DNA from: Escherichia coli
GTDB lineage: Bacteria > Pseudomonadota > Gammaproteobacteria > Enterobacterales > Enterobacteriaceae
DNA: 64,000 bases
Assembly: GCF_016026235.1 (NCBI RefSeq)
Contig: NZ_CP065613.1
Strand: one strand, 5' to 3'
The notes below the pieces were generated by a model. The model made no database searches, was not told the origin of the DNA, and was given only the letters and a program-made list of their open reading frames with translations. This document shows positions 31,695-41,009 of the stretch, piece after piece. How positions within the stretch are numbered: the stretch's first letter is position 1; each line of letters opens with the position of its first letter. The position numbers and the translations under genes were made by a program.

Positions 31695-31879
31695 ATCTCC
31701 TCCTTGTATCTTGACAATTGGTTAAAATAACTGTGATTAGATTTGGCAAGGTGTATGCAGCCCGATCCCTCAAGGGGTTCATAGCCCGTAGCTCAGCGAA
31801 TGGCGCATACACTGAGCCACTCATCAGAAACCCGAACAGTTGTCAGTACGCCATAACGCATTTGCAAGGATGGGTAATC

Positions 31880-32848
<969 letters not shown>

Positions 32849-32851
32849 TTT

Positions 32852-33256
32852 TTACGTGCAAGACAGTTGCTGAGCTGTCCGGGGAAGACTGAATCCTCCG
32901 GTCTGGCAGTGTGTGCAGTACCACTCCCCATAATAATCGTGGTGACATTGTCTGCAGTGCCAGCTGGCTTTACGCACCACGGGTAAGGCATCCGGTACGA
33001 ATTGCTGCAGACGTTTAATCAACTGTATTTCTCTGCGCTCCGGCCTGACATAAGGGCACTGTTGACCGTGCTCTGTCAGCCTGTCGTCAGTGTGTTCAAA
33101 CCAAGGAAGTTCAGTGTCGTATTGCGGATGGTATCTGAGTGCACTGCCACACAAGTGGCAGGTGTAGTTAGCATAAGGTGCGGCCTGTGCTGTACGGGCG
33201 CCCGTCAGACGTCCGTTGCCATCAAGAGCGATAAAGGATTTTGCGTACATAGTCAT
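32852..33256 (-). CDS. Hypothetical Cys-rich (putative zinc-binding) protein, paralogue B
   Basis: 134-aa ORF with CHLC...PWFEH...WHCRQC...CTHC; same cysteine architecture as paralogue A. Confidence 0.5.
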   Translation of the reverse strand: MTMYAKSFIALDGNGRLTGARTAQAAPYANYTCHLCGSALRYHPQYDTELPWFEHTDDRLTEHGQQCPYVRPERREIQLIKRLQQFVPDALPVVRKASWHCRQCHHDYYGEWYCTHCQTGGFSLPRTAQQLSCT

Positions 33257-33415
33257 ATTCCTCAGCCGCCAGACGACACGCAGGCAACAGCCGTCCCGGT
33301 ACGGGCAGCGTGGTCCGGTGTGAATGGCGGTTTCAGTTCAGTCTCAGAAGGGAAAATCAGTGTGGTGGCCGTGAACACGTCATCACACTGAAGTCAGATA
33401 ACTCGTCTGTCTGGC

Positions 33416-33985
33416 TCAGCCACGACTGCAGCCAAAGTTGCGCTCACCGGTGCAGTGAGCTTTGGTATGCTCCTTCGCCAGATAGTCAGCACGTTCCAGC
33501 ACTTGCTGAAAGCCGGTGTCATCATTACGCGCCAGCCACACCGCCGGCCAGGCCGGAAAATGCACCAGCGTGGCATGGCACCCGACATCCACTCCCAGGG
33601 CACTGCACCACGCCTGTTTAATCATCCCGGCCAGTGATCCCGGAGCGCGGTAATCACCGGCACGACACCAGGTATCCCGGTTGACCAGCAGCATCAGGTG
33701 ATAGTGTTTTTTACCTTTGCACTCCCCAAACTCCCGGGCCCAGACGTAATGCAGGGTTGTGGGATGCACGCGTTTACCTTCCCGATGCTTACGTTTCTGG
33801 TAAGCGTCGATTCGGGCTTTCAGGGCATTGATGAAGCGGGATATCACAGCTGCGTCCGTTGCTGCCGGTACATCCGGGAGACGCAGGTCAACCCGCAATG
33901 CCGTCAGGCGGGGATGAACATTCAGTGCGTGCCGCACCGTCTCACGAATACGTTGCTGCCAGAAGGGGTTGTATTTGTAGGTCAT
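33416..33985 (-). CDS. YagK/YfjJ-family (inovirus Gp2-like) prophage protein
   Basis: Product starting MTYKYNPFWQQRIRETV... resembles the CP4-type YagK/YfjJ family; assigned from memory only. Confidence 0.55.
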   Translation of the reverse strand: MTYKYNPFWQQRIRETVRHALNVHPRLTALRVDLRLPDVPAATDAAVISRFINALKARIDAYQKRKHREGKRVHPTTLHYVWAREFGECKGKKHYHLMLLVNRDTWCRAGDYRAPGSLAGMIKQAWCSALGVDVGCHATLVHFPAWPAVWLARNDDTGFQQVLERADYLAKEHTKAHCTGERNFGCSRG

Positions 33986-34183
33986 GGTTAAATCTCCGTA
34001 TGGTTCATACGGAATAGCCACGTCGTAAAAAATGCGCAGAGTCCCTGAAGTGACCTCCGGCAGGACACTGTCTCAGGCACTCTGTGATAACCCGAACGGT
34101 CGTCTCCGGACTGACGGTTGAATTTTCAGCGTTGTTTTTTAATGTAAAAAACCGGTTACGGGTAAGGCTGTGAGGAGGGAGTT

Positions 34184-34384
34184 ATGGTGATACGCAAAAA
34201 GAAGTGCAGGGACTGTGGAAACGCGATTACTCATAATACAGTGTGTTGCCCGTATTGTGGTTCTGTCGACCCCTTCGGCTACTACCGGAATACAGACCGT
34301 ATCGTTACCATACTGCTGGCGCTGATTATTGTGGTCCTGCTGACTACTGTCAGCGTCAGTGTGTGTATACTGTGTAGCTGGTGA
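34184..34384 (+). CDS. Small zinc-ribbon protein with a C-terminal transmembrane helix
   Basis: 66-aa ORF preceded by a strong Shine-Dalgarno (gaggagggag). CRDCGN...CCPYCGS zinc-ribbon followed by a hydrophobic segment IVTILLALIIVVLLTTVSVSVCIL. Confidence 0.4.
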   Translation: MVIRKKKCRDCGNAITHNTVCCPYCGSVDPFGYYRNTDRIVTILLALIIVVLLTTVSVSVCILCSW

Positions 34385-35614
34385 GATAACGGTTCATGTA
34401 TCCCCTGAGCTGACAGTGTACCGTGTATATTAAGCGTAACCGACAGGTTCTCCTTCATACCATATTAAATTTTTCCAGGTATTGCCGCTGCCTTATTTCG
34501 TCCCATACAGGAAAACTCATCTGGGTTTCTGACAAATACGCGAAACTCACAGCCCCTCAATATCAACCACACGTTGTAAGCCGGTAATACCTGAAAATCA
34601 GCCTATTACCGCCCACGCCTCCGGCACCATTCCCTTTTGATTTCGAATTCTTTGTTGTCGCTATACCGCTTAATGTTCCCGGTCCTCCGGTGCAGATAAC
34701 ACCGGAGTCATCGTAGCGCTGCTTCAATATTCAGGTGACATATTTCCAGACAGAAGCCGGCGCGCGATCGTAAAGTTTGTTCATTGTCAGTTCTGCCAGC
34801 CGGTTGTCAACGGCAGAGTTAAAGGCTTCCAGCTCCGCAAGGGTAAGTTTATAACGCGTGTGGGAATTCACTTTTCCCGCGTCTCCTGACGTATTACGGG
34901 CTGCCACTTACCTGGTGTCCCGCAATACAGCCTTAGTGTTCCGTTATCGGGGATCCGGACGCACCGCAACAACCGGGGAAGTATTTCTGGTTTAGAGCAG
35001 TGTCAAGAGGGATTTCTCAGCCCCTCACTCACCGGCTCAGTCTCAAGGCAGGAGAATTAATACGCTCAGTTCATGTCTTATACAGGAATGGGCACAGGGG
35101 GAGCTAGCGTGTCACTGCTGATTTTACGCATCAGCGTTCATGTATCTGCACTCTGATACATGAACGATTCACAGCGCTCTGTTACCGGAGAGATTTACTC
35201 TCTTAGCTTACTCTGGCAAATCCTTTACGTTACTCTCTGATGACTTCTTATATTTATAATACCAATCAGACAGCCTTATCCCATCGGTGATATCAGTCTC
35301 CTCCTCGCCAGGAACGGGCTGACTCACTGTAACCACCTCCGAAAACAACTCTGCAATTATCAGAACGCCTGCTTCTCTCCCTGTCCTCACGAAAACTATC
35401 CCCTCTTTATCGCGCGTGCGTGCGGAAGCATCTTTTCGCAACAACCACCCAGTATACCGGTACGGCTCAGCCACCGCAACCTCCCCGTTTATCTCCTGGC
35501 GGTCACATTCCCGATTATTTTTTACGTTTCTCCCCGGTTGTTATGCCGGTGAAGGTGGCGCGCTGTTTTCATGACCACACCGGCTGGTTTAACAACATCC
35601 GGAGGAACATTCTC

Positions 35615-35821
35615 ATGGCTACCCCAGTTTCACTGATGGATGACCAGATGGTCGACATGGCATTTATCACTCAACTGACCGGCCTGACAGATAAGTGGTT
35701 TTACAGGCTCATCAGGGATGGGGCCTTTCCGGCTCCCATCAAGCTGGGCCGCAGCTCCCGCTGGCTGAAAAGTGAAGTGGAAGCCTGGCTGCAGGCGCGT
35801 ATTGCACAGCCCCGCCCGTAA
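35615..35821 (+). CDS. alpA: AlpA-family phage/prophage transcriptional regulator
   Basis: 68-aa product with the AlpA pattern ...ITQLTGLTDKWFYRLIRDGAFPAPIKLGRSSRWLKSEVEAWL... Confidence 0.7.
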   Translation: MATPVSLMDDQMVDMAFITQLTGLTDKWFYRLIRDGAFPAPIKLGRSSRWLKSEVEAWLQARIAQPRP

Positions 35822-35909
35822 TTTCTGACCGTTATCCGTTCACCCGCAGCAGACGTAATCCCCGGCCTGCCGGCGGCATTCTGCTGCCTGTTATATCCCC
35901 GTGAGGAAT

Positions 35910-36518
35910 ATGAAAATGAAACAACAGTATCAGACCCGCTACGAATGGCTCCACGAAAGCTACCAGAAATGGCTGACCGGCTTCACCCGGCACGCCGTAT
36001 CCTGGGGCGTGTGTCATCCGAATATCTACTACTTCCATAATCTGACGCCCGGTTGGGTGTCATTCAATGGTGAAAAACCGGAGATTGCCATCGTACCCCA
36101 GAGCCTGCACCGGCTGATTTATGGCCCTGACAAACGGGCCACGCCGCCCCTGGATGATGATCTGATCGTGAATTTATGCACCAGTGAACATCTGCTGGTT
36201 CATCATCCGATGCTGGAAGGCATTCTCCTGTCTGAATGTGAACGTCTGAGGCAGCGTTCTCTGGCAAATAAACTGATCAGCCTCTTCCGTCAGTTTGGTG
36301 GCACGGAGTTGCGCCTCAAACTGGTCTGGCTTTGCTGGCTTGATTTAATGACCGGAAACAGCCTTGAAGACTGGAAAGAGAACCTGAAACGGAAATCAGA
36401 AAAAGAGCTGGAGGAATGGATCATCAACCGTCAGAGGCAGAGCGCAGCACTGACGGATCTGATGGATCAGTACGTGCTCCTGGCATACCGCACAACGGTT
36501 GACGATAACCGCAACTGA
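35910..36518 (+). CDS. Hypothetical protein (island-encoded)
   Basis: About 200-aa ORF directly downstream of alpA with a Shine-Dalgarno (gagga) upstream of tandem ATGs; no recognisable domain. Confidence 0.5.
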   Translation: MKMKQQYQTRYEWLHESYQKWLTGFTRHAVSWGVCHPNIYYFHNLTPGWVSFNGEKPEIAIVPQSLHRLIYGPDKRATPPLDDDLIVNLCTSEHLLVHHPMLEGILLSECERLRQRSLANKLISLFRQFGGTELRLKLVWLCWLDLMTGNSLEDWKENLKRKSEKELEEWIINRQRQSAALTDLMDQYVLLAYRTTVDDNRN

Positions 36519-37718
36519 TGCCGGTTGCTTCCGGAAGGTGTGACAAAATACGGAAATGATGATGCTCCCGGCCCCGCATGCTCACCTGCAGAGCGTGTTC
36601 GTCGTCATCATACTGAGCCATGACGGGCGTCTTAAGGGCATCCTGTCATTGCTGAGCAGGCAACACCACCAGAGGAGCCACGGACAGGGATGTTCTTTAC
36701 AGCCCGATGCACGCCAGGTTCTCAGCAGACTGAATGTGCAGGTGCGGTTATTCACCAGAAATGGCATGCTGCGGTACATACCCATCCTGGTGACAATATG
36801 TACGTGGCGACAGCGATCCCGGCACTGTGGAAGAGACTCACTCAGCCTGCAGGATATTCTTTCCGGCATCCGGGAATGTCCGCCTGAATGCAAACAGGAT
36901 GATATTTGAATCCGTAATACTGTTCTTTCATCATAAATAATTTATGCAGATACAGTTAACCGTCACAGTAGCAGGTTTGTTTTCCCGGGAAATAATATCC
37001 GTCAGACTGATGCCGGAACATATCTGAAACACGTTATGATGTTTTGTTATCAGAAATGTTGTATATTCTTATCCGTGACGGCAGTTTAATGCCCTCTGGT
37101 ATCACCTGATAATGCATATCCTGCGATGATTCGTTATATTTACGGGACACGTCTCTTTTCATTGTGCTCCTTTTCAGACTTCATTTTCCATAAGTGTTCC
37201 CCGGCATAAAGGAGGTACCTTTCTGGCGTTTATAACTCTCTTTATCGGTGACGCCGGTAATACAGGGAATACCACACCGACAAACGAGGTATTAACGGAC
37301 GATATTTCAGTGTCCATAATTTTGCTGTCCGGTTAAATAACGTCAGTCTGCTGCCCTCTGACTGTAATCATCAAAGCCGGAATGCATACCGGGTTACAAC
37401 GTAAAAAAAGTGATGCTGGCCCCCGGTGCAGCTGGCGGGCGAAACATGTTTACCTTTCAATACCCCCTGTCTGCAGTCTCCACTCTTCCATCCTCTTAAG
37501 CTACGTCGGCCACATGAGTGCACTTCCATGATAACAGGTATTCCTGTCAGCATAACGAAGCCGGTTACCTTCCCTTCCTCCTGCATTTCCTATCAGAATG
37601 ACTGTACAGCGCGCAGATTGCCTTTTTATTGACCACCTTAATATACCATTATAAACTTCTTTTTATCATGTTATTATCACCTTATTATGTTTAATTTTTA
37701 AGCAGCCAGAGAAAGAGG

Positions 37719-38636: not shown

Positions 38637-38905
38637 TTTCAGACATATATTATCTCCGTGAGTCCCCCGCCACCTTTCCGGTGTGCGGGGTTTTTGTCTT
38701 TTTTCACCGGGAATACATGTATGAATCCGTCTGATGCCATTGAGGCAATTGAAAAACCGCTCTCCTCCCTGCCTTACTCACTTTCCCGTCACATCCTGGA
38801 ACATCTGCGCAAACTCACCAGTCACGAACCCGTGATTGGCATTATGGGTAAAAGCGGGGCCGGTAAATCCTCACTCTGTAATGCACTGTTTCAGGGGGAG
38901 GTCAC

Positions 38906-40199
38906 CTGAGGGATCCCCAGAAAATTTAGTAAACCATTATCATATTGGTATACCGTTGCTGTAGAACTTTCAGCCCTGCGTCAAGTGACAGTGTGTTTAG
39001 TATGAGTGGAGAATGTCGAATCACATTCTCCGCCAGTTTTAATAACGAGATGACTCGCCTGTGCTTCACTGTATTTGCCTGATATTTATGATGTATCCCT
39101 TTGTTTTCCAGGCTGAAACCGCTTAACCACATAATGATACTGGCTAATGTTGCGATCAGACTCAATACCGTGACCCGCCCGGATGAATGACTGGCACCAA
39201 ACCGTAATCCAAATCCCCAGCGAGGATTTTTTTCATCCCTGAAATTTTGCTCAATTTGCATTCTACGGCTGTATAATTTCATTACCTGTTTTGGCGAGAA
39301 CTCAGTACTGTTTGTGAAAATAAACCATGGTGATTTCCCGGCAGTACGAGCTTTAGCCGTCACCGATGGTCTGGTTGCTCTTTCCTTCGAGCGTTTAAAT
39401 CAACGACCTTTAGGCTTACTTTTATAAAGATAAAAATGCCCTTCATGTTGTGCATTTTTATCTCGACCCAGCAGGCCTTCACCTAAATAAATTGCTGTCG
39501 TTGATGCTTTTGTGCCTGAGTCCGACACCTTTTCCCAGCCATTACCAACATTGTAATAATGATTGCCCAGTACCCGGCAAATATAGGTCCAGCCACGGGA
39601 GCGGAGCTGTTGGAACCATCGCCCCTGAAAACCGGCATCTGTAATAACAATGACATCAGTCCCGGGGGAAAAGCACTCAGCAAGCGATTCCAGAAAACGC
39701 TCATGTACATCTGCATTCGCTGTCTGTGATGATGGAACGACACAACTCATCAACGGTAAAGAACGCCCGTCACATGCCAGGCTTGCCCGCAAAAGCTGAA
39801 AACGAGAGGCATGATAAGCACTCCAGTCAATGAGTATCACAACACGAGACATTCCCCGCGTAATCTTTTGGGTAATTCGCTGAAAAATGGTGGAAACCTC
39901 ATTTTGCAAATGTCGATTCCCCAACAGTCGATCCACCCGCTTTATTTTGTTTTTAACTGATGCCGTACCGGTTAAATGACGCCCGATACTGGTAAGTGTG
40001 AGGGAAGCGCCATTTATTACAGCATTAGTTGCGTCAATCAGTGATTTTTGACGGTAAAGATGCAAAGGGGCCAGTATGTTGTTAAGGAAATTTTGGCATA
40101 ATGAACGTGCAGGCATAGTGGTGATCTCCTTGAAATTGTTAGCACAATCAATTAGATCACATCTCACTATGCCTGTCTTGTTTTCTGGGGATTCCTCAG
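38906..40199 (-). mobile_element. IS10-like IS4-family insertion sequence inside yeeP
   Basis: Terminal inverted repeats CTGAGGGATCCCCAGAAAA (38906-38924) and CTGAGGAATCCCCAGAAAA (reverse complement of 40181-40199). Flanking direct repeat GGGAGGTCAC at 38896-38905 and 40200-40209. Confidence 0.7.
38926..40116 (-). pseudogene. IS4-family (IS10-like) DDE transposase, in two frames
   Basis: Segments resemble the IS10 transposase (NKIKRVDRLLGNRHL; VIVITDAGFQGRWF; YSRRMQIEQNFRDEKNPRWGFGLRF) but are split between ORFs 39400-40116 and 38926-39363. Confidence 0.7.
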
Positions 40200-41009
40200 G
40201 GGAGGTCACCCCGGTCAGTGATGTTCACGCCGGCACCCGGGAAGTGCGGCGCTTCCGTCTGAGTGGCCACGGTCACAGCATGATTATCACTGACCTGCCC
40301 GGGGTGGGCGAGAGCCGGGACAGGGATGCAGAGTATGAAGCCCTGTACCGTGACATTCTGCCTGAACTTGACCTGGTACTGTGGCTGATTAAAGCCGATG
40401 ACCGTGCCCTGTCTGTGGATGAGTATTTCTGGCGACACATCCTGCACCGGGGACATCAGCAGGTGCTGTTTGTGGTGACGCAGGCCGACAAAACGGAGCC
40501 CTGCCATGAATGGGATATGGCCGGCATTCAGCCTTCTCCCGCACAGGCACAGAACATTCGTGAGAAAACAGATGCGGTATTCCGGCTGTTCCGGCCCGTA
40601 CATCCGGTTGTGGCCGTATCGGCCTGCACCGGCTGGGAACTGGATACGCTGGTCAGTGCGCTCATGACAGCGCTTCCCGACCATGCCGCCAGTCCCCTGA
40701 TGACCCGCCTGCAGGACGAGCTGCGCACGGAATCTGTCCGGTCTCAGGCCCGTGAACAGTTTACCGGTGCGGTGGACCGGATATTTGACACGGCGGAGAG
40801 CGTCTGTATTGCCTCTGTTGCACGCACGGTTCTGCGTGCCGTCCGTGACTCGGTGGTCTCTGTTGCCCGCGCTGTATGGAACTGGATTTTCTTCTGAACA
40901 GTCTGCCAGGGGAAATGCCTGATTACATTGCGTTAACCAACTGAAAACATGATACACCCCCCTCATATCCACCTCTTTCTCTTGCGTGACTGCCTTGCTG
41001 TTAATAGAA

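Follow-up and report, generated by a model that had tools for sequence, protein, structure and literature searches.

Genomic setting of the region upstream of alpA

The window analyzed here comprises 64 kb of Escherichia coli DNA, and the stretch of interest within it is a 1.23-kb interval (34385–35614) that lies between two small genes of the plus strand. On the left, a 66-aa zinc-ribbon/transmembrane ORF (34184–34384, + strand) ends at 34384, and on the right, an alpA-like gene encoding a 68-aa helix-turn-helix protein (35615–35821, + strand) starts at 35615. The latter belongs to the AlpA family, as its match to Pfam Phage_AlpA (PF05930, E = 4.9e-9) scores 36.4 bits, above the gathering cutoff of 21. 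Its alignment with the AlpA of K-12 (CP4-57) covers 30 aa only, at 37% identity; this falls short of high full-length identity, and orthology with the CP4-57 gene was therefore rejected. Further to the left, a YagK/YfjJ (“inovirus Gp2 family”) gene and two zinc-ribbon genes are found on the minus strand. The initial annotation had described the interval as an ORF-poor 1.2 kb between the zinc-ribbon gene and alpA, and both its coordinates and its contents proved to be as described.

In a near-identical RefSeq genome, the region lies in an island at the CP4-44 locus, flanked by cobUST/tRNA-Asn and yeeA-sbmC, and the cargo of the same island includes an IS-split Ag43 autotransporter gene, an antirestriction gene, yeeS, yeeT and the cbeA/cbtA toxin-antitoxin pair. 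The 1.23-kb stretch is found at 80% coverage or more in 1723 of 5426 complete E. coli genomes. Moreover, genomes with any match to the stretch carry it at a median of two places each, which indicates that it is part of a repeated island module. The order of the module is a left-pointing YagK/YfjJ-like gene, the right-pointing 66-aa zinc-ribbon ORF, a left-pointing hha paralogue, ∼700 bp of non-coding DNA and the right-pointing alpA-like gene. An identical gene order is seen in at least 10 other E. coli loci, and hha is intact (70–74 aa) in three of them (L003, L007 and L009). These results suggest that CP4-44-type genomic islands of E. coli share a conserved module, of which 34385–35614, with its broken hha paralogue, is very probably the non-coding core. 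A decayed hha together with a putative alpA control region is ordinary content for an E. coli genomic island, and the stretch matters little by itself. Its useful results are negative ones, namely no hidden recombinase and a probable false gene call of 88 codons, and one modest lead is left, a selected and possibly structured alpA leader.

Search for a recombinase and evaluation of the 88-codon ORF

The position of the stretch in a P4/CP4-like island beside an alpA-like gene made a degraded recombinase a reasonable idea beforehand, and the initial annotation had named it as one possible content. We translated the six frames of the stretch with stops masked and scanned them against Pfam (E ≤ 1) and PHROGs (E ≤ 0.1). 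No profile similarity to a recombinase, an integrase or a P4-type primase was detected in any frame, and HHA was the only family recovered; the check for protein-level similarity to integrase, primase and other P4-like proteins thus gave none of these, but did reveal a member of another family. At the DNA level, a search of 50,697 phage records in distant mode returned no match to the stretch. In island copies with an intact hha, the corresponding spacer is still non-coding and of similar length, and a Pfam scan of this spacer finds no protein signal and no tomB. As far as profile and DNA similarity can tell, a remnant of a recombinase in the stretch is excluded, and it is hardly conceivable that the stretch is what is left of a gene for a recombinase, an integrase or a P4-type primase. 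The six-frame PHROG scan also gave one meaningless match of 12 residues.

The sole ORF of at least 60 aa wholly within 34385–35614 lies on the minus strand over the DNA upstream of alpA (35208–35474, 88 aa, GTG start). When the stretch was shuffled 1000 times, the longest ORF had a median length of exactly 88 codons (88 codons or more in 52% of the shuffles), and the ORF-poverty of the stretch is therefore what chance predicts for non-coding DNA. The ORF could nevertheless be a real small gene, with coding constraint explaining the conservation upstream of alpA, since RefSeq lists it in near-identical copies as the hypothetical protein WP_000840364.1 and some diverged copies keep an ORF of ∼85 codons open. 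However, these diverged ∼85-aa versions are open only through a frame switch in the middle of the ORF, and the 88-codon frame itself is broken by a 2-nt indel or stop codons in 7/7 other copies; among the copies compared, it is open only in those at least 99% identical to the window. The variable sites show no codon periodicity (24, 19 and 26 at codon positions 1, 2 and 3, respectively; P = 0.57, chi-square test), and an excess at third positions is not seen. A search of 5.8 billion proteins with the 88-aa sequence returned 107 matches of 48–134 aa, all from Escherichia, Shigella or Escherichia sp. and nearly all named “hypothetical”, and none of them has a Pfam domain except two transposase-fused calls. 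The ORF itself was assigned to no Pfam or NCBIfam family, and the most conserved DNA of the stretch (35487–35614) falls outside it. These comparisons indicate that the ORF at 35208–35474 arose by chance within conserved non-coding DNA and is not a gene, in agreement with the initial annotation, which had regarded it as unsupported. We consider a real gene at this position very improbable, and the many RefSeq annotations that list the 88-codon “hypothetical protein” probably reflect a false gene call.

A truncated hha paralogue

Pfam HHA, RefSeq and an alignment to intact 70-aa copies all identify a 58-codon ORF with a GTG start (34731–34907, − strand) as a truncated hha paralogue. Its product matches positions 14–57 of the 57 in the Pfam HHA profile (PF05321, Hha/YmoA family) with E = 1.5e-17 and 64.1 bits, above the gathering cutoff of 25, and the same match is found by the six-frame scan. 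Residues 12–57 of the ORF align with residues 26–71 of the 72 in Hha (PDB 1JW2 and 4ICG, E = 2.7e-12), and the Hha-homologous in-frame codons run from 34874 to 34734. The minus-strand peptide-like remnant previously noted at 34734–34871 is therefore real, and its homologous in-frame part extends over 34734–34874. The gene decay that this remnant had been taken to suggest is real too, but the decayed gene is a paralogue of hha, which encodes a small H-NS co-regulator, and not a recombinase.

The homology with the DNA of intact copies stops at 34886, and one base has been deleted between 34879 and 34878. Beyond 34886, unrelated DNA (type A, see below) has taken the place of the promoter, the GAGAGG ribosome-binding site and the initial ∼23 codons, and the annotated 58-aa ORF thus consists of 11 foreign codons followed by Hha residues ∼26–72. 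Compared with a complete Hha/YmoA protein of ∼70 aa, the N-terminal helix and the conserved RRC motif are absent, and the start of the intact paralogues, MEVKTKEDWLYQLRRCSSRETLE, is missing. The 58-aa ORF stays below the cutoff of the NCBIfam Hha subfamily (NF008191; 66.1 bits vs. 90) and likewise does not reach that of NCBIfam YdgT. In RefSeq, the hha copy of the window is labeled either as “Hha/YmoA family” (58 aa) or as a pseudogene “missing N-terminus”. At the equivalent position in L003, L007 and L009, hha is annotated and its product reads MEVKTKEDWLYQLRRCSSRETLEKVISHTRYKL…, and the intact 70-aa island copies are 58% identical to core Hha; the K-12 Hha query behind this value is consistent with the PDB alignment.

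It is of interest whether the 58-aa ORF might be a working, shortened Hha-like protein, which might bind H-NS via helices 3–4 or act in a dominant-negative manner. Some RefSeq genomes annotate the same 58-aa protein (WP_001344112.1) as the product of an ordinary gene, the Hha fragment is identical across many genomes, and the Hha-homologous part retains 88–94% DNA identity to the intact paralogues, with only 2 amino-acid differences from L008. Yet Hha residues 1–25, which include helix 1 as well as the RRC motif, are lost, the score is that of a sequence below the NCBIfam Hha cutoff, other RefSeq annotations flag the ORF as a pseudogene, the ancestral promoter is gone and, as read from the sequence, the GTG start has no well-spaced ribosome-binding site. 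Moreover, the sister type A copy L005, which shares the same junction, has decayed further and carries indels that destroy the frame of the hha remnant. We therefore regard a functional short protein as unlikely, and the hha copy in the window is most likely a pseudogene.

Island-borne hha paralogues are already published, and the truncated paralogue is already annotated in RefSeq. The chromosomal paralogues hha2 and hha3 of pathogenic E. coli are carried on islands and linked to the flu-yeeR cluster (PMC4864382, PMC6480617), and the island hha paralogues of EAEC 042 are EC042_4516 and EC042_4796 (Prieto et al. 2016, PMC4864382; Bernabeu et al. 2019, PMC6480617). Judging from context and family, the intact 70-aa island copies appear to be hha2/hha3-type paralogues, and the copy in the window is most simply explained as a dead member of the same group. 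It resembles hha2 and hha3 in belonging to the Hha family and in lying on a horizontally acquired island, where it accompanies the flu (Ag43)-yeeR-yeeS-yeeT-cbtA cluster at the CP4-44 locus; unlike them, it has no residues 1–25, no ribosome-binding site and no promoter, has one base deleted and is probably non-functional. Similarly, an 11-residue motif of core Hha/YmoA (PDB 1JW2, 4ICG and 2K5S) is conserved in the ORF of the window, whereas the N-terminal third of the protein is lacking and, unlike at the core gene, no tomB-like gene is present upstream.

Mosaic spacers around the hha remnant

The non-coding anatomy of the stretch was derived from a comparison of 15 island copies. The spacer between the convergent zinc-ribbon gene and hha remnant (34385–34730) is non-coding, with no Pfam or PHROG match, and it is a mosaic between island copies, in which similarity begins and ends at differing points. 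Read from the sequence, it contains a perfect 8-bp GC hairpin (34685–34692 paired with 34700–34707) that lies 24 nt beyond the hha stop codon and has no U-tract, and for which we infer a putative terminator role.

On the other side of the remnant, the spacer between hha and an AT-rich box upstream of alpA exists in two unrelated forms, type A accompanying the truncated hha and type B accompanying an hha that is intact or damaged in another way. The type A replacement segment in the window (34887–35248) is unrelated to the type B spacer and shows no protein signal. A repeat search found in it GTTCATGT motifs on the reverse strand (35069, 35136 and 35156) and a hairpin (35114–35132), and the segment also holds a 12-bp perfect palindrome (35135–35166) and a 12-mer (34968–34979) complementary to 35531–35542. 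The palindrome was considered as a conserved operator, and this is weakened by its imperfect form in L005, L013 and L016. The type A segment is 96–97% identical among type A copies vs. 72% for the adjoining hha remnant, a contrast that could stem from constraint on the segment or, equally, from recombination between island copies.

Conservation and promoter candidates upstream of alpA

The conservation common to type A and type B copies begins sharply at 35249, at an AT-rich box (35249–35264) that marks the onset of similarity between island copies. On the plus strand, the box contains TATAAT (35255–35260), and on the minus strand it contains TGgTATTAT (35264–35256), an extended −10 element that was called promoter-like in L009. 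These two elements are candidates for overlapping promoters that would drive alpA and hha in opposite directions. In a simple sigma-70 scan of the window, no good promoter was found on the plus strand, and the TATAAT site, which has no −35 element, was not called. Likewise, the sigma-70 scan called no promoter within the proximal 130 nt upstream of alpA, and inspection by eye revealed no convincing sigma-70 or sigma-54 match there. The earlier proposal that the stretch could hold the alpA promoter or operator is thus plausible in view of the strong conservation beside alpA, the AT-rich TATAAT box and a clustered repeat, although the scan offers no good plus-strand sigma-70 promoter in its favor. 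With the hha remnant set aside, the remaining stretch is plausibly the alpA control region.

The conserved DNA can be divided into two parts. The distal part, a putative alpA leader (35262–35486, + strand), is C-rich and G-poor and appears to change at a near-neutral rate, with a mean pairwise identity of 83.6% vs. 86.5% at the third codon positions of alpA; an exception is an invariant 21-mer, AACTCTGCAATTATCAGAACG, at 35347–35367. The proximal part (35487–35614, + strand; ∼129 nt) shows a mean pairwise identity of 93.8%, compared with 86.5% at the third and 96% at the first and second codon positions of alpA. It is also the only upstream part kept in L011 and L012, in which a different gene lies upstream and the DNA is otherwise unrelated. 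This identity and the retention in L011 and L012 suggest that the proximal ∼129 nt are under purifying selection, and indels of 1–2 nt in the proximal region rule out coding as the reason. Since the copies are recombining paralogues, mosaicism, instead of selection, may underlie the local differences in conservation.

A 20-mer of the invariant core of the proximal region was compared with 100,044 species genomes, and the only hit was a single contig, probably of a mis-binned “Collinsella” MAG. Judging from this 20-mer search, the alpA-proximal leader is restricted to E. coli/Shigella. Searching viral contigs with the AlpA protein gave 6 loci, and the three with 70–79% protein identity have unrelated upstream DNA. 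An upstream ORF starting at ATG 35543 was considered as a peptide gene and rejected, as it has no ribosome-binding site and no conservation of frame. In the window this ORF is in frame with alpA; elsewhere two 1-nt insertions make it end at a TGA that overlaps the alpA ATG.

A predicted hairpin over the alpA ribosome-binding site

The proximal region is predicted to fold into a hairpin of ∼25 bp (35526–35608, + strand). Its outer stem pairs GUUUCUCC (35526–35533) with GGAGGAAC (35601–35608), and the second arm includes the alpA ribosome-binding site GGAGG (35601–35605). The predicted fold has three further stems, a second (35537–35543 with 35590–35596), a third (35545–35551 with 35578–35584) and a fourth (35554–35556 with 35574–35576). 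Among 11 distinct sequences, 98.9% of the pair cells are paired. The variable pairs are of five types, all of them one-sided and wobble-compatible, and 0 compensatory changes are seen because the stems are almost invariant. The ribosome-binding site is predicted to be paired with P > 0.99 in the ensemble, and its probability of being unpaired is 0.002–0.009 in 7/8 variants when folded in a 120-nt context and in 8/8 in a 350-nt context. The pairing of the ribosome-binding site is thus kept across the copies. However, 5% of shuffled leaders conceal it to the same degree, and the energy of the hairpin is unremarkable (z = −1.37 vs. shuffles).

The composition of the upstream part is also unusual. 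The plus strand at ∼35190–35530 is C-rich and G-poor (C/G = 2.2, skew −0.40), which places it in the top 0.3% of the 200-nt windows in the 64 kb, and the RNA structure of the distal part or of the whole leader is not stronger than that of shuffles (z = −0.78). A C-rich, G-poor and weakly folded RNA is the composition expected where Rho loads, and the composition of a Rho-dependent attenuator upstream of a gene is thus what is seen here. The putative leader resembles known leaders that hide a ribosome-binding site in that its stem pairs UUUCUCC with GGAGGAA, and it resembles Rho-dependent leader attenuators in being long and in having a C-rich, G-poor stretch; unlike curated RNA families, it matches none of them and shows no covariation, and the statistical support for it is marginal.

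The stretch might instead encode a small regulatory RNA, either trans-acting or antisense, which would originate in the well-conserved type A segment or on the complementary strand of the hha remnant. A candidate of this kind would act through 34968–34979, whose pairing with the arm that covers the ribosome-binding site (35531–35542) would open the alpA hairpin. The higher identity of the type A segment than of the hha remnant between copies, the presence of two adjacent hairpins in this segment and the predicted duplex with the covering arm (−29.9 kcal/mol, matched by ≤1% of shuffles) are consistent with such an RNA. On the other hand, the uneven identity of the type A segment can be explained by mosaic recombination, the 12-nt match is marginal in a local search (E = 0.023) and was spotted after the fact, and type B copies lack the complementarity even though their alpA leader is the same. 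In addition, no intrinsic terminator is predicted in the type A segment, and no Rfam family was found in 33000–37000 at E ≤ 1. A small RNA is, in our judgment, quite unlikely.

Repeated motifs, probable silencing and a possible mechanism

The 10-mer GTTCATGTMT occurs exactly 4 times in the 64 kb, and all four occurrences are within the stretch. The GTTCATGTAT motif clusters upstream of the proximal alpA region, and one copy (34392–34401) is located in the spacer between the zinc-ribbon gene and hha. Among 14 loci, which include both non-homologous spacer types, 22 of the 23 occurrences of the core 8-mer are within 1.3 kb upstream of alpA. This clustering suggests that the motif is an operator candidate.

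Control of alpA by nucleoid-associated proteins has been described in related elements. H-NS represses alpA in CP4So, a CP4-type prophage of Shewanella (Zeng et al. 2016, PMC5148205), and Hha induces the excision of CP4-57 in E. coli K-12 (PMC5148205). In strain 042, all genes of the CP4-44-locus region are up 2–6 fold in hha-null and hns mutants (PMC6480617). As in CP4So and CP4-57, the window has an alpA-family gene in a CP4-like element, and in those elements the upstream region is the control point for nucleoid-associated silencers. The window differs from them in that its AlpA-like protein is distant from K-12 AlpA and no integrase is adjacent. In the window, the gene for an Hha paralogue points away from alpA. 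By analogy with these systems, silencing of the module by H-NS/Hha is likely.

A mechanism can be sketched from these observations. As divergent genes, hha and alpA would have the stretch outside the hha remnant as their common control region, in which the AT-rich −10 box (35255–35264) may fire one or both ways. The alpA gene would then be made from a leader of ∼345 nt, the C-rich, G-poor distal part of which could load Rho, while the invariant proximal hairpin would hide the ribosome-binding site and keep AlpA low until a trigger opens the hairpin; the repeated GTTCATGTAT sites would be the operator candidates. In its most specific form, the proposal is that the alpA-proximal ∼130 nt constitute an undescribed cis-regulatory leader, in which a hairpin of ∼25 bp hides the ribosome-binding site after a C-rich candidate Rho-loading stretch, and which would be opened by upstream sequences (34968–34979 in type A copies) or by regulators at GTTCATGTAT, forming a switch with the divergent island hha. 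We put this specific form forward as a tentative model that is possible but, taken as a whole, rather improbable. If it is true, the leader and the divergent island hha would set when the island regulator is made. The alpA-proximal 130 nt, which are under selection, could be an element that controls translation of the regulator in a common island family. The island family with the alpA-proximal ∼130 nt is very common and virulence-associated, being represented in 3640 of 5426 complete E. coli genomes.

Features of the putative alpA leader and the type A spacer

Upstream of the alpA-like gene (35615-35821, plus strand), an invariant hairpin of about 25 bp is predicted at window positions 35526-35608, in which UUUCUCC would pair with the ribosome-binding site GGAGGAA. 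This hairpin is more conserved than the synonymous sites of alpA; the statistics for it are only marginal, and no compensatory changes were found within it. The arm predicted to pair with the ribosome-binding site (35531-35542) has a perfect 12-nt complement at 34968-34979, in the type A spacer (34887-35248) that lies beside the truncated hha paralogue. The predicted duplex of these two segments is -29.9 kcal/mol, a value reached by at most 1% of shuffles for a complementarity that was spotted post hoc. The 12-nt complement is not present in type B copies, in which an unrelated spacer lies beside an intact or differently damaged hha. Moreover, a conserved ATG upstream of alpA opens a frame of 24 codons (35543-35617), which continues in frame into alpA in the window copy; where two 1-nt insertions are present, as in some other copies, it stops instead at a TGA that overlaps the ATG of alpA. 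Having no ribosome-binding site, this frame is probably not a peptide gene.

The plus strand at 35190-35530 shows a strong bias of C over G (skew about -0.40, in the top 0.3% of 200-nt windows) and, judged from this composition, would be a good candidate Rho loading site when read on the alpA strand. A strong bias of this kind is present also at 34450-34650. Among the other loci carrying related island copies, L017 has 12 consecutive C residues at a distance of about 170 nt upstream from where alpA begins, L016 has 7 C at this position, and the corresponding site in the window (about 35443-35450) reads CCACCC. The L017 run could be a slippage-prone leader tract or else an assembly error.

The motif GTTCATGTMT occurs in four exact copies (34392-34401, 35069-35078, 35136-35145 and, on the reverse strand, 35156-35165) and is absent from the rest of the 64 kb. 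At the matching place in other loci, type B spacers contain two or three copies of TCATGT(A/G)TTTGATC. GTTCATGTMT may be regarded as a candidate regulator binding site.

The hha remnant and neighboring genes

Among type A copies (the window compared with L005, L013 and L016), identity is only 72% in the hha remnant (34745-34886, minus strand), whereas the adjoining 344-bp spacer (34905-35248) shows 96-97% identity. This contrast could be explained either by recombination of island copies within hha or by constraint on the spacer. A perfect 8-bp GC hairpin, CTCCGGTG-N7-CACCGGAG, is located at 34685-34707, 24 nt beyond the stop codon of hha; it lacks a U-tract and may serve as a terminator for the two convergent genes here, hha and the zinc-ribbon gene.

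After alpA, an ORF of 205 aa (35901-36518) matched no Pfam or NCBIfam family. Its position is conserved in every copy examined, but within the module its sequence diverges most, with a mean identity of 77%. In L011 and L012, a 263-aa ORF lies upstream in place of hha. L011 (JAIJJM010000108.1), from a "Collinsella sp." MAG, bears alpA of E. coli together with its leader at 3444-3782, and this contig is most likely mis-binned Escherichia DNA. Insertion-sequence damage flanks the module in the window (about 31700-32850 and 38900-40200): the two zinc-ribbon genes are separated by an IS110-family transposase pseudogene, and further downstream IS elements interrupt the region of the GTPase and Ag43.
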